Source: a virus. From it: 64,000 nt of DNA. A program made the translations under genes and the position numbers. The notes below the pieces were generated by a model. The model was not told where the DNA came from and ran no database searches. It saw only the letters and a list, made by a program, of their open reading frames with translations. The stretch lies in IMG/VR virus record IMGVR_UViG_3300050821_008688, positions 1-64,000 of that record, one strand, 5' to 3'. Below are positions 10,302 to 53,513 of the stretch, piece by piece. Every line of letters starts with the position of its first letter. Within the stretch, counting starts at the first letter, position 1.

Positions 10302-11453
10302 ATGGCGGTTCGATATCTTGATGGTGCTATCGTAACATATGATTTGTCTACAAATACTTTTCAGCCGTCTGCGACACTCGTAACGTCGTCTCCGGGGGAA
10401 TTGTCTGTTTACGACCCAATCACTGGTATTTTGGGTCCATCAACGACTCTTCTTTCTCAACTTGCGCTGCTTGCATCTCCTGCGCTTACCGGGACACCGA
10501 CCGCGCCGACCGCCGCCCCACTCAACGATTCCACACAAATTGGAACCACGGCATACACAGACTCTGCCGTTGCTGTGGAGACTGCGCGGGCTGAAGCCGC
10601 AGAGGCACTAAAAGCTCCGCTAGCGTCGCCCGCCTTAACTGGAGTTCCGACTGCTCCAACGGCGTCACTCGGTACGAATACTACTCAGATTGCGACTACG
10701 GCTTTTGTGTTGGCTAACGCAACACCGGAGATGGTGTCTTCAGTATTTGGGCGCATCGGGGCAATCGTGGCGGTTTCAGGCGACTACTCTGTGGCGCAAG
10801 TTACTGGTGCGGCACCGCTGGCATCTCCGGCATTCACTGGGGTACCTACGGCTCCAACAGCTTCAGCGGGAACCAATACAACTCAAATCGCGACGACTGC
10901 GTTTGATACTGCCGCCGTTGCTGTTGAAACGTCTCGCGCGGAGGCCGCTGAAGGCTTGCTCGCTCCGAAAAATTCGCCTACGTTTACGGGAACGGTTTCA
11001 GGAATTACGGCAGCGATGGTGGGGGCGGATGTATCTGGCGCAGCCGCGACTGCTCAGTCTAACGCGGAAACTTTCGCTACATCGGCGGTAAACACAGAAA
11101 CCTCGCGTGCGGAGGGGGTTGAGTCTTCGCTATCTGGGCAGATAACAGCAGAAACTTCTGCGCGCGCGGCTGCTGATGCACTGCGTCCTGAAGTATACAG
11201 TATATCGGGAGCAGCAGCGTCAAATCCAAAAATTGTAACTGGTAGTGCCACTATTGGTGGCGGCGGGACAGTAACAATTACGTTGACGGGAAGCGCGGTG
11301 TTTTCGTCTGCGACTTCGTATTATGCTCTCTGTACGAACATGACTTCAAACGCTGTAAATCATGGAAACTTTGTAACTCAATCAAGCGGAAGTAGTTTTA
11401 TTATTAACGGTGCCAGTGGAGACGTTGTGAACTTCTACGCGATTGGGAACTAA
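10302..11453 (+). CDS. tail fibre protein with PLASPALTGxPTAPT...TTQIATTAF repeats
   Basis: Three full copies of the classic fibre repeat plus ETSRAE coiled segments. Confidence 0.85.
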   Translation: MAVRYLDGAIVTYDLSTNTFQPSATLVTSSPGELSVYDPITGILGPSTTLLSQLALLASPALTGTPTAPTAAPLNDSTQIGTTAYTDSAVAVETARAEAAEALKAPLASPALTGVPTAPTASLGTNTTQIATTAFVLANATPEMVSSVFGRIGAIVAVSGDYSVAQVTGAAPLASPAFTGVPTAPTASAGTNTTQIATTAFDTAAVAVETSRAEAAEGLLAPKNSPTFTGTVSGITAAMVGADVSGAAATAQSNAETFATSAVNTETSRAEGVESSLSGQITAETSARAAADALRPEVYSISGAAASNPKIVTGSATIGGGGTVTITLTGSAVFSSATSYYALCTNMTSNAVNHGNFVTQSSGSSFIINGASGDVVNFYAIGN

Positions 11454-24466: not shown

Positions 24467-25519
24467 CTAGAAGTTGTCCCTTAAGTACTGGTTCAATTTA
24501 TCTAGCCTGTAGGTAGTATCTCGCAACTGCACGTTTAATGCAAGCGAATCCGCATTGAGTTGGTTGCGGAAGATGAGGGCCAGAGATGTGTCGGACCCAG
24601 AGATAGCCGTGGAGGTATCTGCGATTTTTTGGCGCTCAACTTTTAATCGGCGTAGTTCCTCGGACTGGACAGCGACTAGGTCGCTCACGATTTTGTGATA
24701 GACCTGAATGCTCTGCATTACGTCGCCGACCTGTGCTTGTTTCCAGTCGCCGTACGCTTCTTCAGATTTGTTGTAGTGTTGTGATGCCGTGTGGCTCCCG
24801 AGATTATACGTGACGGTGAAGCCCGCGTATGGGCTCCCAGTTGGCACTGCGAACGGCAGCAGCGGTTTCTCTACGCCAGCGGTTACTTGGAAATCCCAGT
24901 TGTTCAGCTTCAAAAGTTTATCTTGAGCCTTCTGGGTTTCAACGTTCGTCGCAAATTCTGCATCGGCCAGTTCGGTTAGAGACTCAGTAGAGAGTGGAGG
25001 CACGAAAATATTCGCAAGTGCCACTCGGGTGGTTTGACGTTCTGTTTCTAGCGCGAGTTTTTGTTTGCTGAGTAAATAGATGGACTGTTTTGGAATATTG
25101 TGAGCCTCCAAAATTTTTGTGTTTGCGGCGATTAACGTGTCATTCTCCGCAATCGCCGCGTTGATTAGGGTCAATTTATATCGTAATGCGTCTAATTCCA
25201 GAGCCTGCATATCAAATGTGATACGTTCTTGGACGGTGATGGAGTCTTTGTAGAGTTGGCACTGCTTTTTGCCAATGGCGATAGTCAGACTGCCTTCGCG
25301 GATGTGATTGACAGAGTCAGTGAGCCCCAAAAATAGTTGCGGCGGCGTGCCTTGGGCTGGCGTGACTCCCGCCGTGGCGACTGGCGCGCGAAGCGTAGCG
25401 CCTTGGGCTTGGGACGACTCTTCAATATAACGGCAGTACGCCGTGGTGTCTTGCGCGGATTGGCCCCAGATAGCCATTGACCACATAAGCCATGTAAAAA
25501 GAATCGCTAGGTATTTCAT
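24467..25519 (-). CDS. outer-membrane-factor (TolC-like) protein
   Basis: Signal peptide; two amphipathic beta-hairpins (VATAGVTP..LFLGLT; WDFQVTAGVE..YAGFTVTYNL), each followed by long helices, matching the TolC two-fold repeat. Confidence 0.55.
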   Translation of the reverse strand: MKYLAILFTWLMWSMAIWGQSAQDTTAYCRYIEESSQAQGATLRAPVATAGVTPAQGTPPQLFLGLTDSVNHIREGSLTIAIGKKQCQLYKDSITVQERITFDMQALELDALRYKLTLINAAIAENDTLIAANTKILEAHNIPKQSIYLLSKQKLALETERQTTRVALANIFVPPLSTESLTELADAEFATNVETQKAQDKLLKLNNWDFQVTAGVEKPLLPFAVPTGSPYAGFTVTYNLGSHTASQHYNKSEEAYGDWKQAQVGDVMQSIQVYHKIVSDLVAVQSEELRRLKVERQKIADTSTAISGSDTSLALIFRNQLNADSLALNVQLRDTTYRLDKLNQYLRDNF

Positions 25520-26238
25520 GATTTCTCCTGTTGGTCATCAACGTTGAGAATGAAATCTGCGACACGGCCATGCAGAAGTTTGGCGTTCGGTATTACGCAA
25601 TGCCCGCCAATCTTGCCGGGGAAATGTTCAAGGACCGGGCGAGCTACTGAAGACATGCCGAGTGCGGCATATCCGTCATTGTATGTGTAGTTTGATAGTT
25701 TGTAAACTACATCGAAATCCAGACCGTTTTCTTCGCAGTATCTGTGGACTTCTTTTTCAAATGCGATGCACATACCGTAGTATGTAGTGCTCCACAGTTT
25801 CAAGGCTTCGGTCGTGCTAGCCTTGGGAGTAGCGAATGTTTTGATGCCGATTGACAGAAAAATCTCAGCGGCTTCTTTGGCACGCGGGCCACCAAAAAAT
25901 TTTACGAACGTCGTTATACCCTTTGCGAGATTTGGGTGAACGCCGCGAATTGGAGAGTGAACTACGCGATTTGAAGCGATACGGCAGCATGTTCCCATTG
26001 GAACTGTTGAGTGAACGATGACCAGTCCCTCGTCAGTCAAATAATGCAGTAAATATGCCCGCACGTTTTCAATGAAATGTTCGGAGTATGGAATACAGAT
26101 GTGGATAACATCTGCTCTGATGTCTGTGGAACTGTCCATATCAATGCCAACTACTTTGAGGCCACGGTCTCGAAGAACGGAATAAACTGCGCTGCCCACT
26201 TGTCCGTTGCAACCAACGACTAGATGCTGTTGTAACAT
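25516..26238 (-). CDS. UDP-glucose/GDP-mannose dehydrogenase family protein (short form)
   Basis: Rossmann VVGCNGQVG, HSTVPMGT, EALKL and catalytic GGHCV; SD GGAGG. Confidence 0.88.
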   Translation of the reverse strand: MLQQHLVVGCNGQVGSAVYSVLRDRGLKVVGIDMDSSTDIRADVIHICIPYSEHFIENVRAYLLHYLTDEGLVIVHSTVPMGTCCRIASNRVVHSPIRGVHPNLAKGITTFVKFFGGPRAKEAAEIFLSIGIKTFATPKASTTEALKLWSTTYYGMCIAFEKEVHRYCEENGLDFDVVYKLSNYTYNDGYAALGMSSVARPVLEHFPGKIGGHCVIPNAKLLHGRVADFILNVDDQQEKS

Positions 26239-26251
26239 TTGAATCCTCCCT

Positions 26252-27277
26252 TTAGAATATCCACAACGGTCGTCCGAAAAATAAGACTTTGGCTTTGCCA
26301 TCTTCTGGATTGTAGAGCGAAATTTCTGCGAGTGTGCCGCGAACGTCATCTTTGAACAGCGGATTCGCTCCGTGAACCTCGGCGGGAAACAAACGAACGA
26401 TGCGGCCCGCTTTGGAGCAAGCTACTATTCCAATCTTGCAGGAGTACAACGGAGCGTTCGGTTGCACGGCGGTGCCGTATGGCACAAACAGAAAAGTTTT
26501 GGATGGCCCAGACAATACGGCATAGACGGGACTGTCCTGTGCTGTCTGAAGGGCGTTGTCTAGGGCGCGAATTTGGTCGGTCTCGGCTTTGAGTGTCGCA
26601 GAACTGGCGCAAATTGTAATGTTGAGTTGAGAGATTTCGTCCAGTAATTCGGCGCGTTTGGTCAAAGTTTCCAGCATTTTTGTATTCGTCGGGTTGTGTT
26701 CCACAATTTGGTCGCGCAATAAAATCTCAGTGATGCGGTTGTCAGTGAATCCGTTTCTGGCTTGAGTCAGTGCCAGCTTCGCAGTTTCCGCGTCGCTCTT
26801 AGTCATTAGTCCCGTGGTCATGTCTGTATCAATTTCGCTGCGCAATGCTGCAACACTTGAGTCATCCGTGGTGTCTATATCGGATTGTTTCTGTTGGTCA
26901 AGAGAGGCAAGCGCGCGACCGCTCTCTTTAATGGCTTGGTCTTCGCGTGCGATAGCCGGGTCAGTTTTGTCGGCGACGGTTTGAAGTGCTAGTCGGTGAA
27001 TTTTCATCTCAAGAATCAGGTTGGTGAGACGTGCGGTATCAATAGCGAGAGCGTCCCGCTGTGCGTTGGAAGTCAGTACTTTGCCCAGCATGTCGAGGCT
27101 GGCCGCGTCTGAGGCTGAGAGCGTGACTGGCGCGCCCCAAGAGGATGCGGTGAGATAGTAAATGATGACTGCGCCATACGAGACCATGCCTCCAAGAATG
27201 CCATAAAGAATTGAGAGGCCAACTAAGCGGTAGAGTGTTAGAACCAAACTTGTCGCGCTTAATCTAAACTGAATCAT
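26252..27277 (-). CDS. membrane-fusion / periplasmic adaptor-like protein
   Basis: One N-terminal TM, a long coiled-coil hairpin and a C-terminal beta domain. Confidence 0.55.
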   Translation of the reverse strand: MIQFRLSATSLVLTLYRLVGLSILYGILGGMVSYGAVIIYYLTASSWGAPVTLSASDAASLDMLGKVLTSNAQRDALAIDTARLTNLILEMKIHRLALQTVADKTDPAIAREDQAIKESGRALASLDQQKQSDIDTTDDSSVAALRSEIDTDMTTGLMTKSDAETAKLALTQARNGFTDNRITEILLRDQIVEHNPTNTKMLETLTKRAELLDEISQLNITICASSATLKAETDQIRALDNALQTAQDSPVYAVLSGPSKTFLFVPYGTAVQPNAPLYSCKIGIVACSKAGRIVRLFPAEVHGANPLFKDDVRGTLAEISLYNPEDGKAKVLFFGRPLWIF

Positions 27278-28484
27278 TTGATTTCCTCACTTTCGGTTTT
27301 AGAGTTCTGTTGCCCCAGTCGCCGGAGTCTAAAGTGAAAATAGCCAAAGGCGCGAGCAACAGCGAATTAACAATCCACCATGTAGAATATACCAGCAACT
27401 TCAGCGGATGTCTAACAGATTGTGACGGGGTGAACTTTCGCACCAAGCAAAATACTAGAAATCCGTATCCGAAGAAAATGAGCGCGCGGTTCGGGTCTAG
27501 CCACGCGCCGGGATATCCTGCAAACAGAAGCGCGATTTGCAGAATTGAAATGAATAGCACCAGCGGCGTTAGGATGTAGACATACAGCGATTTCACGCCC
27601 AGTTTGTGAATGTGCGTGTGGACGTGGCGAACTGAAAAGAAAAAATCCCGAATTGTGGTACGTCTCCAGCGTAGTTGTTGTCCCCAATATTTTGTGAAAG
27701 TGTTTGGGACGGCGGTATAGCAAACGGCTTTCTCGTCCATGTAGGTACCCCAGCCATTCAGAAGCAGGCAGTGTGTGATGAATCGGTCTTCGCCGTCTTT
27801 GACTTGAACGCCGAACCAATTTCGGCTTTCTAGTTCTGGCCGTAGTTGTTCAAAGGCTTCGCGTCGTAGAGCGAAAGCGTAGCCGCCGATTACGCCGACC
27901 ATTCGCATCGCATTCTCAGGTTGCTTGTAGAGTTGGAACCCGAGAAAATAAATGAAGACTTGAAACGCGGTCAGCGCGTTGTCATTTGGATTGCGAACAA
28001 TCGCGGGCGCACCGACACCACCCAAACGTTTGTCTCCCAGACACGCCATTAATTCACGAATGCACGTTGGTCCCAGTGTCGTGTCGGAGTCTACAATCAT
28101 GACTATTTCGGAATCCGAGTGCGCCAGCGCGTTCAGAATGGTTTGGGTTTTACCAAGGTTTGGATTGTTGTAGAAGGCGCGCACATTTGGAAAATCTACA
28201 GCGGCTTTTGCTAGCCACTCCGCTGTGTCGTCTCCGCTGCAATCGTCGGTCACAATCATATCAATCTTGCCGGGATAATCACTGTGGGAAATACTCTCCA
28301 CTGTAGAATAGACTGCGCGGCCTTCGTTGAAAGCAGGCAACAGAATGGAGAGGGAGGGAGTATAGGAATAATCCTTGATGACTCCAACGTTCGGATGGGA
28401 AATACGCATAATCGCGCCGACCAAGTAGCGAGCGATTCCTACAATTAGCGCGATGATGGTCATCATCACCAAAAAAATCGGCAT
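27264..28484 (-). CDS. processive GT2 polysaccharide synthase (NodC / hyaluronan / chitin synthase-like)
   Basis: PAFNE, DD, GK, DSDT, GEDR, QQLRW and C-terminal WGNR; N- and C-terminal TM helices. Confidence 0.92.
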   Translation of the reverse strand: MPIFLVMMTIIALIVGIARYLVGAIMRISHPNVGVIKDYSYTPSLSILLPAFNEGRAVYSTVESISHSDYPGKIDMIVTDDCSGDDTAEWLAKAAVDFPNVRAFYNNPNLGKTQTILNALAHSDSEIVMIVDSDTTLGPTCIRELMACLGDKRLGGVGAPAIVRNPNDNALTAFQVFIYFLGFQLYKQPENAMRMVGVIGGYAFALRREAFEQLRPELESRNWFGVQVKDGEDRFITHCLLLNGWGTYMDEKAVCYTAVPNTFTKYWGQQLRWRRTTIRDFFFSVRHVHTHIHKLGVKSLYVYILTPLVLFISILQIALLFAGYPGAWLDPNRALIFFGYGFLVFCLVRKFTPSQSVRHPLKLLVYSTWWIVNSLLLAPLAIFTLDSGDWGNRTLKPKVRKSNDSV

Positions 28485-28720
28485 TAGTGTCTCGCCCTTT
28501 CTAGCTGTTTATTTCCACGCGATGTAGGGTGGTTGTCTTCGTGGTCCCAACCGCTGAAGCAGGTGTCGCAAACTCCGCGTTCCCGTTCCTCAGAGCGAAA
28601 TAGCGGAGCCCCGCAGGGTCCAACCTCGGTGACCGTCATGCGGCTGGTCTCTTTGCCGGTGTACATATCAATAGTGCCGTAGTCAATTGTTTTGCTTCGC
28701 TCAACTATGCAGGTGCTCAT
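28484..28720 (-). CDS. small Cys-containing protein, first gene of the polysaccharide operon
   Basis: Its stop overlaps the GT2 start; promoter TTGACA-18-GAGAAT upstream. Confidence 0.6.
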   Translation of the reverse strand: MSTCIVERSKTIDYGTIDMYTGKETSRMTVTEVGPCGAPLFRSEERERGVCDTCFSGWDHEDNHPTSRGNKQLERARH

Positions 28721-28766
28721 GTCTCAATTCTCCCTGAAAGTGGGTATCGGTGTCAAGGGCAATTTA

Positions 28767-33117: not shown

Positions 33118-33552
33118 ATGAAAGATAGACACAAAGATACAGAGAAGCGGCGAACGTATGTCGCGAAGTACCGAAAGGAACATAAAAGTCAGAGGCGGGA
33201 GTACATTCAAAATCGAATCGCGCGCGGCATCTGTATAGACTGCGGTCACGCATCTCGCAGCGCCAGATGCATCATTTGTCTAGCGAAACATCACCAAGGT
33301 TTGACGGGAAAAGAACTACAAAAAGCAGTCAAAGCGTGGGAAAAGTTTGATGGCAGGTGTCAGTGTTGTGGAACACGAATTCCCGGAGGTACGGGGTATT
33401 TCTGTACCGACCACGACCATAAAAACAAACGCTTCAGGGGAATTATATGCCATAATTGCAACGTGGCTCTAGGTTTCATGGGTGATAGTGAGCAGCGGAT
33501 TTTGTGTCTCTTAATATATCTGAGAAAGTTCTTGACATCCGGGAATGAGTAA
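33118..33552 (+). CDS. recombination endonuclease VII-like (His-Me finger) nuclease
   Basis: CQCC...TDHDH...RGIICHNCNVALG. Confidence 0.88.
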   Translation: MKDRHKDTEKRRTYVAKYRKEHKSQRREYIQNRIARGICIDCGHASRSARCIICLAKHHQGLTGKELQKAVKAWEKFDGRCQCCGTRIPGGTGYFCTDHDHKNKRFRGIICHNCNVALGFMGDSEQRILCLLIYLRKFLTSGNE

Positions 33553-33567
33553 AGGTAGAATCAGAAC

Positions 33568-35969: not shown

Positions 35970-36230
35970 ATGGGTGCGTTTATTTTGGGATTGCTTGTCG
36001 GGGGCGGGCTGGCGTGGGTAGTGTCGCTGTTTGTTCGTACTCACGACGCATGGTTATTGCGTCAAGCTGTGTTTTATGGTCCGTATACGTGTTTGGAGTG
36101 CGGGCGAATGATTTGTGAGTCGTCGTTTGAAGATGGTAGGAAAGCGTACGACTACCCTGAAGACGGCCCCATCTACCCCAACACGCGATGGAACCGTCAC
36201 GAGTGTGCGGCGACGGACTACAATTACTAG
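35970..36230 (+). CDS. TM-anchored Zn-binding protein
   Basis: SD AGGAGG; TM then CLEC...HEC. Confidence 0.6.
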   Translation: MGAFILGLLVGGGLAWVVSLFVRTHDAWLLRQAVFYGPYTCLECGRMICESSFEDGRKAYDYPEDGPIYPNTRWNRHECAATDYNY

Positions 36231-36790
36231 GCGAACGTGATGGCGTTGACCACGGTCTGCGCGCGACTCGTGTCATTTTCCTTGAGGTAACAGAGCGCAG
36301 TGGCGGGAGACCGGTGTTGCAAGAAACCGGAGACCGCGCCGAGTCTCTGGGTCTCGTCAAATATCTTCATCGCGATTGAGTGTCGGAAGACGTGAGAGTG
36401 ACCGAAATCGCTGTGGAGCCCCGCCGCGTCGCAATAAACTTTCAGACGGTCGTTGAAATTCTGCCGATGGCTGGTGCTGAACAACAGATTCGTGCGCCGA
36501 GTCGCGGCCAGCCTGACCAGTGGCGTCATATCAAAGGCTGGGTCCGCGTCAAAGTGCAAATCCTTGAAGGCTTTGCTACCGCCCTTGCGCGCGTGAATCT
36601 TGACCACGAGACGACCGTCAGCTTCAAAAATATCCTCACCCTTGAGGCTGAGAATCTGAGAGATGCGAGCGCCGGTAAAATAGCCGAGGAGCGCAATCAG
36701 GTGGTCGTTTTTGCTGGCGTCGCTGGTCTTGCTCGCCTCGTGAATCGTGCGAAATAACTTGCTCAGGTCTTTGGTTTCGAGGTATTCCAT
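36227..36790 (-). CDS. tyrosine recombinase, catalytic domain only (187 aa)
   Basis: TGARISQ, K, HSHVFRHS, LQH...Y. Confidence 0.9.
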   Translation of the reverse strand: MEYLETKDLSKLFRTIHEASKTSDASKNDHLIALLGYFTGARISQILSLKGEDIFEADGRLVVKIHARKGGSKAFKDLHFDADPAFDMTPLVRLAATRRTNLLFSTSHRQNFNDRLKVYCDAAGLHSDFGHSHVFRHSIAMKIFDETQRLGAVSGFLQHRSPATALCYLKENDTSRAQTVVNAITFA

Positions 36791-37029
36791 TAGCGCACCG
36801 CCTCGTTGAATTCCTCGTTGTCCAGTTCTTCGGTGAGGGAGCCGACGTAAGGGTCTAGCACAGGTTTCGGTGCCAAAATTTGCCCCATGAGTTCGTTGTA
36901 GAGTTTGGCCCATTTGTTGGTGTCAGAAAAAACCACGAATTTGGAATCGGTCGGGATGCCTTCAAATTCGCAGGCGCGAGCCCAGACCAAAGAAACAGAT
37001 TGATAAACCGTGATGTGTTTTGTGGTCAT
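36790..37029 (-). CDS. hypothetical protein
   Basis: SD GGAG; coupled to the recombinase. Confidence 0.65.
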   Translation of the reverse strand: MTTKHITVYQSVSLVWARACEFEGIPTDSKFVVFSDTNKWAKLYNELMGQILAPKPVLDPYVGSLTEELDNEEFNEAVR

Positions 37030-51621: not shown

Positions 51622-51924
51622 ATGAGTCAGGAAGAAATCAGTCGTAAAGTAAGACGGACGTGCGAAGGTTGCGGGAAGGCAGTTGAATACGAGTTTATTG
51701 GAGCAACCGATGCTGCGCTTGTCGAAATGATGAGTTGGTACACGATAGTTCGGCAGTTTCTGATTAACGGTCGGCCAGAAAAACTCATGGTGCAGGCGTG
51801 TTCTATTACCTGTGTTCCAGCGGCGGCGCTAAAGTTGGAAGCAGTTCCGTCCGGGTTAGATGAGCCCGCCGACCAGATTGATTTGTCTACGTTGCAGGTC
51901 AATCCAGACCCAACGGTAAACTAA
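51622..51924 (+). CDS. Zn-finger protein (CEGC..ACSITC)
   Basis: SD AGGAGG; coupled to GroEL. Confidence 0.65.
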   Translation: MSQEEISRKVRRTCEGCGKAVEYEFIGATDAALVEMMSWYTIVRQFLINGRPEKLMVQACSITCVPAAALKLEAVPSGLDEPADQIDLSTLQVNPDPTVN

Positions 51925-53513
51925 TGAGCAAAACTATCCAACATGGCGATACAGCACGTCAGTCAATTCTCCGGGGTGTTGATTTCCTCGCGGACGCGGT
52001 GAAGATTACTGAAGGTCCGCGCGGGCGCAATTGTATTTTGGGCCAGCGTGCGTTAGGACAAAGCCCGAAAGTTACGCGTGATGGTGTGACAGTTTCAAAT
52101 TACGCGGACCCGATGGACACGACTGAACAACTCGGAGCCGACCTTGTGCGCGAGGCCGCGCAGAAGACCGACAACTCCGTGGGAGATGGTACGACCGCAG
52201 CAATCGTTCTCGCGCAGGCAATGATTCACGCCGGTTTTGATTTGATAAAAGATGGCGCAAATCCGATGGCGATGGAGCGCGGAATTCACAAAGCGACCGA
52301 GGCTGTAATTGCGCGTCTTCAAAAGATGGCGGTGGAAGTTTCGGGCGAAAAAGTTTTTCAAGTCGCAACTGTGTCGGCCCACGGGGATGCGGAGATTGGT
52401 AAACTCGTTGCGACTGCGGTTGAAAAGGCGGGTAAGGATGGAGTGGTTACCGCCGAGCCGTCGTCAACGTCGGACACGTACATTGAGACGGTCGCAGGAA
52501 TTGAGCTAGAAAAGTCCAGTCTGATATCGGCGGCGTTCATTACAAACCCGGAAGAAATGAAAGCTGAGTTACCTGACTGCCGAATTCTTTTGTGGGAGGG
52601 AGTGATTGGGACAGCGAAATCATTGGTTCCGATTCTTGAGCAGGTTCATAAAACTTCAACGCCGCTGCTTATCATCGCGGGCGGATACGAGCAGGAAGCC
52701 TTGGCGTGCATCATCAACAATAAATTGAAACTGCATCTGCCGCTGATTGCCGTTCGCATGGAAGCGTATGGAGAGAGCCGAAAAAATCTGATGGCTGATA
52801 TATCAACACTGATTGGTGGCACGGAGTACACTGAAGACAAGGGGATGAAAATAGAAAACGTAAAAATTGAAAATCTAGGTTCGGCGCGTAAAGTCGTTAC
52901 GAGTATGTCAAAGACTCAAATCATCGGCGGCAAAGGTAGTCAGACTGAACTGGCTGGACGCGTTCAGCATCTTCGCGAAGCTATAGATATATCTGAACCG
53001 GTGCTAAAGCCGAGCCTCAAACGACGGCTGGCGGCGTTGCTGGGCGGCATCACGATTATCAAAGTCGGCGGCGTCACCGTCACCGAGATGGAAGAGAAGA
53101 AAGACCGAGTGGTTGATGCAATGTCGGCGGCGAAGGCCGCAGTTGAATCGGGAGTCGTGGCTGGTGGCGGAATGGCACTGTTGGAAGCCTCGCATATTCC
53201 TGTACTCAATGTTCCGAGCGGCGAAGAAGCGAAAGGTGTACAAGTGGTGCGTGTTGCGTGTCAGGCTATCGTCAAACAAATCGCGGAGAACGCGGGCGTC
53301 AGCGGCACGCTAATATTGGACCAACTGATGGCGACACCGGATTTGGGATTCAATGCGATGACTGGTGAGTTTGAAAATCTCGTCAATGCTGGAATTATTG
53401 ACCCGGTTAAGGTCGTGGTGGAATCGCTTCGGAATGCATCCGCTGTTGCGTGCAGTATTCTTACGATGGGCGCAACGGTCGCAGAGAAGTCCACGGAGAA
53501 AATCGATGGCTAA
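51924..53513 (+). CDS. groEL: chaperonin GroEL (phage-type, divergent)
   Basis: GPRGRN, VTRDGVTV, GDGTT, GVVAGGG, GIIDP; no GGM tail. Confidence 0.97.
   Translation: MSKTIQHGDTARQSILRGVDFLADAVKITEGPRGRNCILGQRALGQSPKVTRDGVTVSNYADPMDTTEQLGADLVREAAQKTDNSVGDGTTAAIVLAQAMIHAGFDLIKDGANPMAMERGIHKATEAVIARLQKMAVEVSGEKVFQVATVSAHGDAEIGKLVATAVEKAGKDGVVTAEPSSTSDTYIETVAGIELEKSSLISAAFITNPEEMKAELPDCRILLWEGVIGTAKSLVPILEQVHKTSTPLLIIAGGYEQEALACIINNKLKLHLPLIAVRMEAYGESRKNLMADISTLIGGTEYTEDKGMKIENVKIENLGSARKVVTSMSKTQIIGGKGSQTELAGRVQHLREAIDISEPVLKPSLKRRLAALLGGITIIKVGGVTVTEMEEKKDRVVDAMSAAKAAVESGVVAGGGMALLEASHIPVLNVPSGEEAKGVQVVRVACQAIVKQIAENAGVSGTLILDQLMATPDLGFNAMTGEFENLVNAGIIDPVKVVVESLRNASAVACSILTMGATVAEKSTEKIDG

Follow-up and report, generated by a model that had tools for sequence, protein, structure and literature searches.

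A soil phage operon predicted to encode a self-contained glycan secretion module shared with Acidobacteriota

In diderm bacteria, systems that combine tetratricopeptide repeat (TPR) modules with porins (Bcs, Alg, Pga, and Pel) are the usual explanation for synthase-dependent export of polysaccharides. TPR modules occur in BcsC, BcsK, and the counterparts of other diderm synthase-dependent systems (PMC8892547). An alternative that resembles an efflux pump is represented by two bacterial cases. Export of cyanobacterial cellulose by a cellulose synthase together with HlyD-like and TolC-like proteins has been proposed (Maeda et al. 2018, as summarized in PMC8892547), and genetic evidence from rhizobia shows that the production of BgsA/BgsB mixed-linkage glucan depends on TolC (PMC13438883). 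In a study of Acidobacteriota viruses, the auxiliary genes include only single glycosyltransferases and a deacetylase (PMC11924767), and our literature search found no phage system of the synthase, adaptor, and outer membrane factor (OMF) kind. Here, we describe an operon at positions 24467 to 28720 of the first 64 kb (the window) of IMG/VR virus record IMGVR_UViG_3300050821_008688, which has a total length of 99,668 bp. The operon encodes a glycosyltransferase of family 2 (GT2), an adaptor-like protein, and a predicted TolC-type OMF. An initial annotation, made from the sequence alone, took TPR-porin systems to be the normal route of synthase-dependent export in diderms, in agreement with reviews (PMC8892547), and stated that no characterized bacteriophage system like this one was known. 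The latter statement held for phage collections, the BFVD library, and the literature, but the combination of synthase, membrane fusion protein (MFP), and TolC has been proposed or shown in bacteria (PMC8892547 and PMC13438883).

The region contains five tightly packed minus-strand open reading frames (ORFs), whose junctions are overlaps of 1 to 14 nucleotides or gaps of approximately 13 nucleotides:

28484–28720, minus strand: ORF of 78 amino acids with four cysteines, first cistron or 5' leader
27264–28484, minus strand: predicted processive membrane GT2 synthase of the hyaluronan synthase (HAS)/NodC/chitin synthase type, 406 amino acids
26252–27277, minus strand: adaptor-like protein of a new family, 341 amino acids, with a predicted transmembrane helix, hairpin, and beta domain
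25516–26349, minus strand: ORF of 277 amino acids for a short NDP-sugar-dehydrogenase-like protein; likely gene 25516–26238 (240 amino acids)
24467–25519, minus strand: predicted minimal TolC-type OMF, 350 amino acids, with a signal peptide and an AlphaFold2 (AF2) fold

The ORF positions and the DSDT, GEDR, QQLRW, WGNR, and GGHC motifs given in the initial annotation were all present in the translations. With moderate confidence, we interpret the operon as carrying a self-contained synthase-dependent glycan secretion module, common to this phage and its probable hosts. The GT2, adaptor, and OMF genes are hereafter called the cassette.

The GT2 protein matched Pfam GT2 families above their cut-offs, including Glyco_tranf_2_3 (4.9e-22) and Chitin_synth_2 (9.4e-11). 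Among curated NCBIfam families, the best match was NodC (TIGR04242), with 123.5 bits against a cut-off of 550, and the second best was PgaC (TIGR03937), with 96.9 bits against a cut-off of 422.3; both scores lie below the equivalog level. The NodC alignment ran end to end, with GT2 residues 38 to 393 on positions 43 to 394 of the 395-position profile. When a profile of 23 GT2 sequences was compared with the PDB, the best matches were vertebrate HAS1 (8smm; 3.3e-30) and chlorovirus HAS (2.4e-27), whereas cellulose synthases reached just 36 bits in the N-terminal part. Profile positions 112 to 397 aligned to HAS1 positions 230 to 510 and positions 126 to 398 to chlorovirus HAS positions 195 to 462, so that both alignments cover the C-terminal membrane region together with the WGxR motif. 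The residues DD80-81, DSD132-134, GEDR231-234, QQxRWxR (QQLRW269-273), and WGxR (W390 and R393) were invariant in the 23 homologues, and the protein ends 13 residues past the WGNR motif. These results bear out the description of the protein as HAS/NodC-like, and its sequence features indicate that the GT2 is a processive enzyme of the HAS/NodC type that forms a separate family. Because the nearest characterized relatives (HAS, NodC, and PgaC) all use UDP-N-acetylglucosamine (UDP-GlcNAc), the product most plausibly contains GlcNAc, and the glycan is probably GlcNAc based.

The same similarity to NodC raises the possibility that the GT2 produces short chito-oligosaccharides and that the adaptor and OMF act as a passive exit for a small signaling or decoy glycan, as opposed to a polymer of a capsule or matrix. 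In addition to the end-to-end alignment with its best curated family, the enzyme is NodC-like in size and transmembrane layout, and its QQLRWRRTTIRD motif is, as we take it, close to the NodC motif. However, the score of the GT2 is far below the NodC cut-off, and the cassette contains neither NodA, NodB, or NodIJ-type partners nor an energized transporter. Streptococcal HAS, which is of the same size as the GT2, translocates its polymer. We thus consider an oligosaccharide efflux system unlikely, and prefer the glycan secretion module.

The 350-residue protein showed no match in Pfam (including OEP), to the NCBIfam OMF models, or in PHROG. An exhaustive hidden Markov model search recovered 279 representative relatives, and the AF2 model from a 72-sequence alignment had a predicted local distance difference test (pLDDT) value of 94.8 and a predicted TM-score (pTM) of 0.85. 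According to DSSP, the model is a two-fold repeat of a helix, two strands, a 69-residue helix, and a return helix, and the equatorial domain is absent. All 38 Foldseek matches at E ≤ 0.001 were OMF channels (E values of 7e-10 to 9e-8), and these included OprN, SilC, TolC, VceC, CusC, MtrE, and OprM. In the VIA alignment, 26 OMF entries gave Z scores of 13.7 to 15.6 over 316 to 330 residues, compared with Z ≤ 9 for unrelated proteins. The rmsd to solved OMFs was high (7 to 8 Å) and the TM-scores were 0.36 to 0.53, which we attribute to the modeling of a monomer and the missing equatorial domain. The 69-residue helix would span approximately 100 Å, the length of the TolC alpha-barrel, and a trimer would agree with the presence of a signal peptide and of four strands in each chain. 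Residues C29 and C87 are invariant across the family and fit a periplasmic disulfide. The initial annotation had read this signal-peptide protein, with its two-fold hairpin/helix repeat, as TolC-like, and the predicted fold, which matched only OMFs among solved structures, supports that reading. No TolC-like viral protein was found in the BFVD viral structure library at E ≤ 0.001.

Four members of the OMF family (P0142, P0151, P0159, and P0168; 567 to 612 amino acids) have a CE4 polysaccharide deacetylase domain at the C-terminus (E values of 1e-23 to 1e-28). To our knowledge, no fusion of a channel with an enzyme exists among known OMFs. The fusions link the channel family to polysaccharide handling and favor an N-acetylated sugar. 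No CE4 was present in the phage of the window itself.

We next consider the conservation of the three genes. A scan for GT2 relatives covering one genome per prokaryotic species yielded 232 loci, and the best 80 of the 232 were fetched. Almost all of these 80 belonged to Acidobacteriota of the class Terriglobia, including Terracidiphilus, Sulfotelmatobacter, Granulicella sp. S156, Acidoferrales, and Angelobacter, and their GT2 proteins were 41 to 46% identical to the phage GT2. The order GT2, adaptor, and OMF on the same strand was found in all fetched loci uncut by contig ends, with three exceptions: one locus with an insertion of approximately 2.5 kb and two with frameshifts. Clustering of neighboring ORFs across the cassette loci identified only these three genes as conserved. 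The same trio was present in four other IMG/VR genomes, all estimated to be complete (332 kb, 463 kb, 111.5 kb with direct terminal repeats [DTR], and 469.6 kb with DTR). A survey of co-conservation, proposed in the initial annotation as a check on the operon, found the trio kept in essentially all intact loci among the 80 bacterial ones and in four other phages; the genes are co-conserved. The survey also revealed what the initial annotation had missed, namely, that the cassette is not specific to phages, since it occurs as a stand-alone module in Acidobacteriota chromosomes. In three bacterial genomes, the flanking genes were ordinary chromosomal ones with unrelated housekeeping functions (such as histidine ammonia-lyase, sensor kinases, and PurU). 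The possibility that the bacterial copies are prophage genes was therefore rejected.

Within Acidobacteriota, the cassette is patchy. The OMF family occurred in at least 3 of 301 genomes in a phylum-wide sample and in at least 11 of 301 genomes in a sample of the family Acidobacteriaceae (approximately 4% of the sampled species), and these counts are lower bounds because of incomplete genomes and the scoring cap. Soil Acidobacteriota of the class Terriglobia are the probable hosts of the phage. In a GT2 tree, the bacterial copies formed one tight clade, and a second, far more diverse clade contained the GT2 of the window, metagenomic relatives with 60 to 89% identity, and three viral contigs; as a quick tree with long branches and no established root, it gives no direction of transfer. 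When the region was compared with 50,697 phage records by blastn, no match was obtained, and a tblastn search with the GT2 against the phage collection recovered just 20 to 33% identical GT2s of unrelated phages.

Some individual loci showed further features. In an Acidobacteriota metagenome-assembled genome (L064:11152–15989), the insertion of approximately 2.5 kb splits the adaptor gene, and the OMF gene is broken into two parts; fragmented OMF or adaptor genes also occur in L032 and L049. The broken genes at these three loci may be pseudogenes or assembly errors. Among the related large phage contigs, a GH16 glycoside hydrolase gene lies immediately upstream of the GT2 gene in two (L084:9231–9977 and L086:9088–9918), and genes for a PP2C phosphatase and a UvrD helicase lie downstream in both L083 and L084. 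In the 111.5-kb DTR phage, a TnpB/Cas12f-like protein (L085:4609–5715; Cas12f1-like_TNB, 2.4e-21) and an ATP-dependent DNA ligase are encoded a few kilobases upstream of the cassette.

The AF2 model of the adaptor-like protein, built from an alignment of eight sequences, had an overall pLDDT of 69, with values above 85 in some helical segments. It consists of a 42-residue N-terminal transmembrane helix (residues 2 to 43), helices at 57–136, 139–154, 160–193, and 196–247 with breaks at 137, 155–159, and 194, and a C-terminal beta domain of approximately 80 residues. Approximately 13 residues lie between the transmembrane helix and the hairpin, and the beta domain is the single one beyond the hairpin. 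The conserved residues cluster in the transmembrane helix, at 152 to 163 (DLxxGLITKxDA, in which G156 is invariant), and in the beta domain. In this model, residues 155 to 159 would form the hairpin tip, and the arms of approximately 90 residues would measure roughly 130 to 140 Å. In the ESM Atlas, the named structural neighbors were all MFP families, but with TM-scores of just 0.29 to 0.39. The nearest clusters were unnamed Myxococcota proteins of 335 to 364 amino acids (score, 0.98; TM-score, 0.54 to 0.68), indicating that the cassette or the adaptor may reach beyond Acidobacteriota. The narrow profile of eight adaptor sequences found nothing in the viral contig or genome contig collections and one 2.1-kb contig among metagenome contigs. 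The initial annotation had proposed modeling the complex of the encoded proteins; the pair of GT2 and adaptor alone gave a weak pass, with a median ipSAE of 0.43 (runs of 0.49, 0.01, and 0.43; best control, 0.00; partner pLDDT ≥ 74), and by calibration, passes at or below 0.60 are wrong more often than they are correct, except where the pairing was already probable. The prediction is therefore weak support for contact between the two proteins.

Several observations weigh against a secretion module of this kind. The adaptor had no match in Pfam or NCBIfam, and none of the 41 members of its family had a match in Pfam. A profile of the 41 sequences found no MFP in the PDB, only chance matches to coiled coils such as exostosin-like 3. 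A Foldseek search of the PDB gave nothing at E ≤ 0.001, with EmrA (4tko) at rank 4 (E = 0.038; TM-score, 0.15), and the VIA wide search returned only generic coiled coils with Z scores of 9 to 12, which is the noise range for long helices. The EmrA model TIGR00998 matched the adaptor at a nonsignificant E value of 0.059. In each of three host genomes, 31 to 46 matches to MFP models were found with the EmrA family model, and the adaptor gene was not among them; hhalign against 12 acidobacterial EmrA-like proteins gave a probability of 7%. The split lipoyl domain of true MFPs also appears to be missing from the modeled structure. Because the scores of the synthase fall well short of the NodC and PgaC cut-offs, its sequence does not fix the substrate or linkage, and NodC-like enzymes produce short oligomers that are not self-exported. 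Neither PilZ nor any other c-di-GMP-binding Pfam domain was detected in the five operon proteins, so that a c-di-GMP or other regulatory domain is absent from them by Pfam. In addition, a periplasmic CE4 domain fused to the channel could not reach a polymer inside a sealed conduit, and the GH16 gene beside the GT2 gene in two jumbo phages could point to a glucan instead. Accordingly, the initial annotation of this protein as an HlyD-like MFP stood in part: the layout of transmembrane helix, coiled coil, and beta domain was recovered in the AF2 model, but the sequence and fold tests of MFP membership were negative or nonsignificant. The middle protein looks like an adaptor in its layout and is not a demonstrable MFP.

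Alternatively, the adaptor and channel may have no part in the work of the synthase. They could be a phage- or host-encoded structure that spans the envelope, handles another cargo or stabilizes the envelope, and simply travels with a GT2 gene. The absence of a recognizable MFP and the weak complex prediction would suit this explanation. It does not account for the strict three-gene order in approximately 80 bacterial and 5 viral genomes, in which no other neighbor is conserved; moreover, the CE4 fusions connect the channel family to polysaccharides, and the cassette has no transporter gene. We regard this separate function as highly improbable and retain the glycan secretion module as the preferred interpretation.

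The fourth ORF of the operon is of a different nature. As annotated with 277 amino acids, it overlaps the upstream adaptor gene by 98 nucleotides, and for this reason, translation likely starts at Met38 (position 26238). The resulting 240-residue protein opens with the Rossmann motif, and its C-terminus lies 15 residues beyond the GGHC cysteine. The match to TIGR03026 (2.6e-11) had 42.9 bits compared with a cut-off of 189.8 and covered only profile positions 98 to 248 of 413, and the matches to the Pfam N-terminal and central domains were below their cut-offs. The UDP-binding C-terminal domain (PF03720) was found neither in this protein nor anywhere in the phage. Of the three domains by which a UDP-glucose/NDP-sugar 6-dehydrogenase is recognized, the protein contains only the NAD-binding domain and the central domain up to the GGHC cysteine. 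In the ESM Atlas, it fell among many mostly viral clusters of proteins of 220 to 276 amino acids; such short UDPG_MGDP_dh-like proteins without the UDP-binding domain constitute a widespread phage family. The gene was absent from all 80 bacterial and four other phage cassettes examined, a related metagenome contig had an unrelated 133-amino-acid gene at its position, and a tblastn search with the protein against the phage collections found nothing. The dehydrogenase-like gene is, as judged from these comparisons, a separate and phage-typical insert in the cassette and not a demonstrated supplier of UDP-glucuronic acid (UDP-GlcA).

These findings bear on the proposal of a hyaluronan-type system, in which the dehydrogenase-like protein would supply UDP-GlcA and the GT2 would alternate GlcA and GlcNAc, as in hasA/hasB and the chloroviruses. 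Solved HAS enzymes are the top PDB matches of the GT2 profile, many GT2 homologues are labeled "hyaluronan synthase" by JGI, and a dehydrogenase-like gene with a GGHC motif lies inside the phage operon. The hasA/hasB-type uronic acid logic of the initial annotation was not upheld, however, because this gene is a phage-typical insert that encodes no UDP-binding domain and is missing from the other cassettes. The protein stops just past the catalytic cysteine, its structural neighbors are short and mostly viral, and the NodC and PgaC families outscore any HAS-specific signal for the GT2. We also know of no counterpart to the CE4 fusions in bacterial hyaluronan synthesis. A hyaluronan-type system is thus decidedly unlikely, and we favor the three-gene secretion module with the dehydrogenase-like gene as an insert.

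The assignment of the operon to a phage, made in the initial annotation, was corroborated by the record and by hallmark genes in the window. The ends of the record are DTR, its estimated completeness is 100%, and the sequencing runs containing the stretch were soil metagenomes only, with no RNA run among them. Further features of the window are as follows:

10302–11453: tail fiber, phage hallmark
28727–28756, minus strand: putative sigma-70-like promoter (TTGACA-18-GAGAAT), ending 6 nucleotides before the ATG of the 78-amino-acid ORF
51924–53513, plus strand: full-length phage-type GroEL chaperonin (phrog_5725, 1.6e-120)
60942–62849: large terminase, phage hallmark

The tail fiber, GroEL, and terminase genes make the phage assignment sound. 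Contamination or misassembly was ruled out because the cassette lies inside a DTR-bounded genome and is present in two further viral genomes that are complete with DTR, and because the phage cassette sequences form a clade separate from the bacterial copies. A tyrosine recombinase of 228 amino acids is encoded at 36227–36913 on the minus strand (Phage_integrase, 47.8 bits, above the cut-off), which raises the possibility of a temperate lifestyle or of a use of the recombinase in genome resolution. The pattern TTGACA-N18-NAGAAT occurred at two sites in the window (28727–28756, minus strand, and 33532–33561, plus strand), compared with 0.03 expected. The promoter at 28727–28756 would yield a nearly leaderless transcript for the 78-amino-acid ORF. 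This ORF had no match in Pfam, PHROG, or NCBIfam and no homologue in the other cassette loci examined.

On the basis of these results, we propose the following mechanism. First, the inner-membrane GT2 would polymerize a UDP-sugar, most likely UDP-GlcNAc, into a chain or oligomer resembling chitin, poly-N-acetylglucosamine, or hyaluronan, and, by its family resemblance, would thread the chain through its own membrane part. Second, the single-pass adaptor would stand beside the synthase and extend its hairpin of approximately 130 to 140 Å across the periplasm, with the conserved tip DLxxGLITKxDA. Third, the 350-residue OMF, whose fold was obtained in the model, would trimerize, dock to the adaptor, and serve as the TolC-like outer membrane channel through which the glycan exits. 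Expression of the module by the phage would give the infected or lysogenized cell a coat or an altered surface, and the phage might benefit, speculatively, by blocking adsorption of rival phages or by changing biofilm or desiccation behavior. The three genes stay together in some Acidobacteriota and in four other large phages, and the trio is thus probably a portable machine that builds a sugar chain and expels it from the cell. More tentatively, and with somewhat less than even confidence, we suggest that the GT2, coiled-coil adaptor, and minimal OMF represent a distinct, mobile, and previously undescribed class of trans-envelope glycan secretion system that draws on two unannotated families. 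In that case, soil phages, including jumbo phages of 330 to 470 kb, would carry and perhaps spread a complete export machine that spans the outer membrane and rewrites the host surface.

If this interpretation is true, the cassette would be a third efflux-pump-like case, one that is genetically self-sufficient with its own minimal TolC-type channel, and this channel would be the first phage-encoded outer membrane channel of TolC-type fold, as far as we could find. Because the cassette is compact and, at approximately 3.3 kb, of a size suited to reconstitution, the handling of polysaccharide by a TolC-like tunnel would become directly testable. Soil phages would then carry a whole surface-glycan machine and not single glycosyltransferases; a complete module spanning the outer membrane is apparently new in a phage. 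Such carriage would have implications for superinfection exclusion and biofilm formation, as well as for the flow of carbon in the acidic soils that Acidobacteriota dominate.

Finally, we compared the cassette with known systems. Like the cyanobacterial cellulose and BgsA/BgsB/TolC systems, it combines a predicted processive GT2 of the inner membrane with a single-pass coiled-coil adaptor and a channel of predicted TolC fold, and it has no parts of the BcsB/BcsC or AlgK/AlgE type. In those systems, however, the synthase is BcsA-like and the adaptor is a recognizable HlyD-family protein, whereas the phage synthase is HAS/NodC-like and its adaptor and OMF belong to unannotated families. Rhizobial TolC is a general housekeeping channel encoded elsewhere, whereas the OMF of the cassette is a dedicated minimal form of 350 amino acids encoded in the operon; BgsA binds c-di-GMP, and the phage cassette has no c-di-GMP module. 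Unlike both bacterial systems, the whole set is carried by phages. With class I HAS (Xenopus HAS1, 8smm, and chlorovirus HAS, 7sp6) and NodC, the GT2 shares the DD, DxD, GEDR/GDDR, QxxRW, and WGxR motifs and a similar size and transmembrane layout, but HAS and NodC operate without an adaptor or outer membrane partner. The PgaABCD/IcaADBC systems resemble the cassette in their GT2, which uses UDP-GlcNAc as the phage enzyme probably does (PgaC was the second-best curated match), and in the CE4 deacetylase tied to the export component in some relatives; they differ in that the cassette has a TolC-fold channel and not the PgaA TPR-porin, that it has no PgaD, and that the phage copy has no deacetylase. 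EmrAB-TolC differs from the cassette in its cargo and energy source, the EmrA matches were nonsignificant, and no lipoyl domain was evident in the adaptor. Nevertheless, EmrA was the sole MFP with marginal matches, and the proposed architecture is similar. In EmrAB-TolC, the adaptor is anchored by a transmembrane helix, has no membrane-proximal domain, and connects to a channel of the TolC type, and its long hairpin compensates for an inner-membrane partner that lacks a periplasmic domain.

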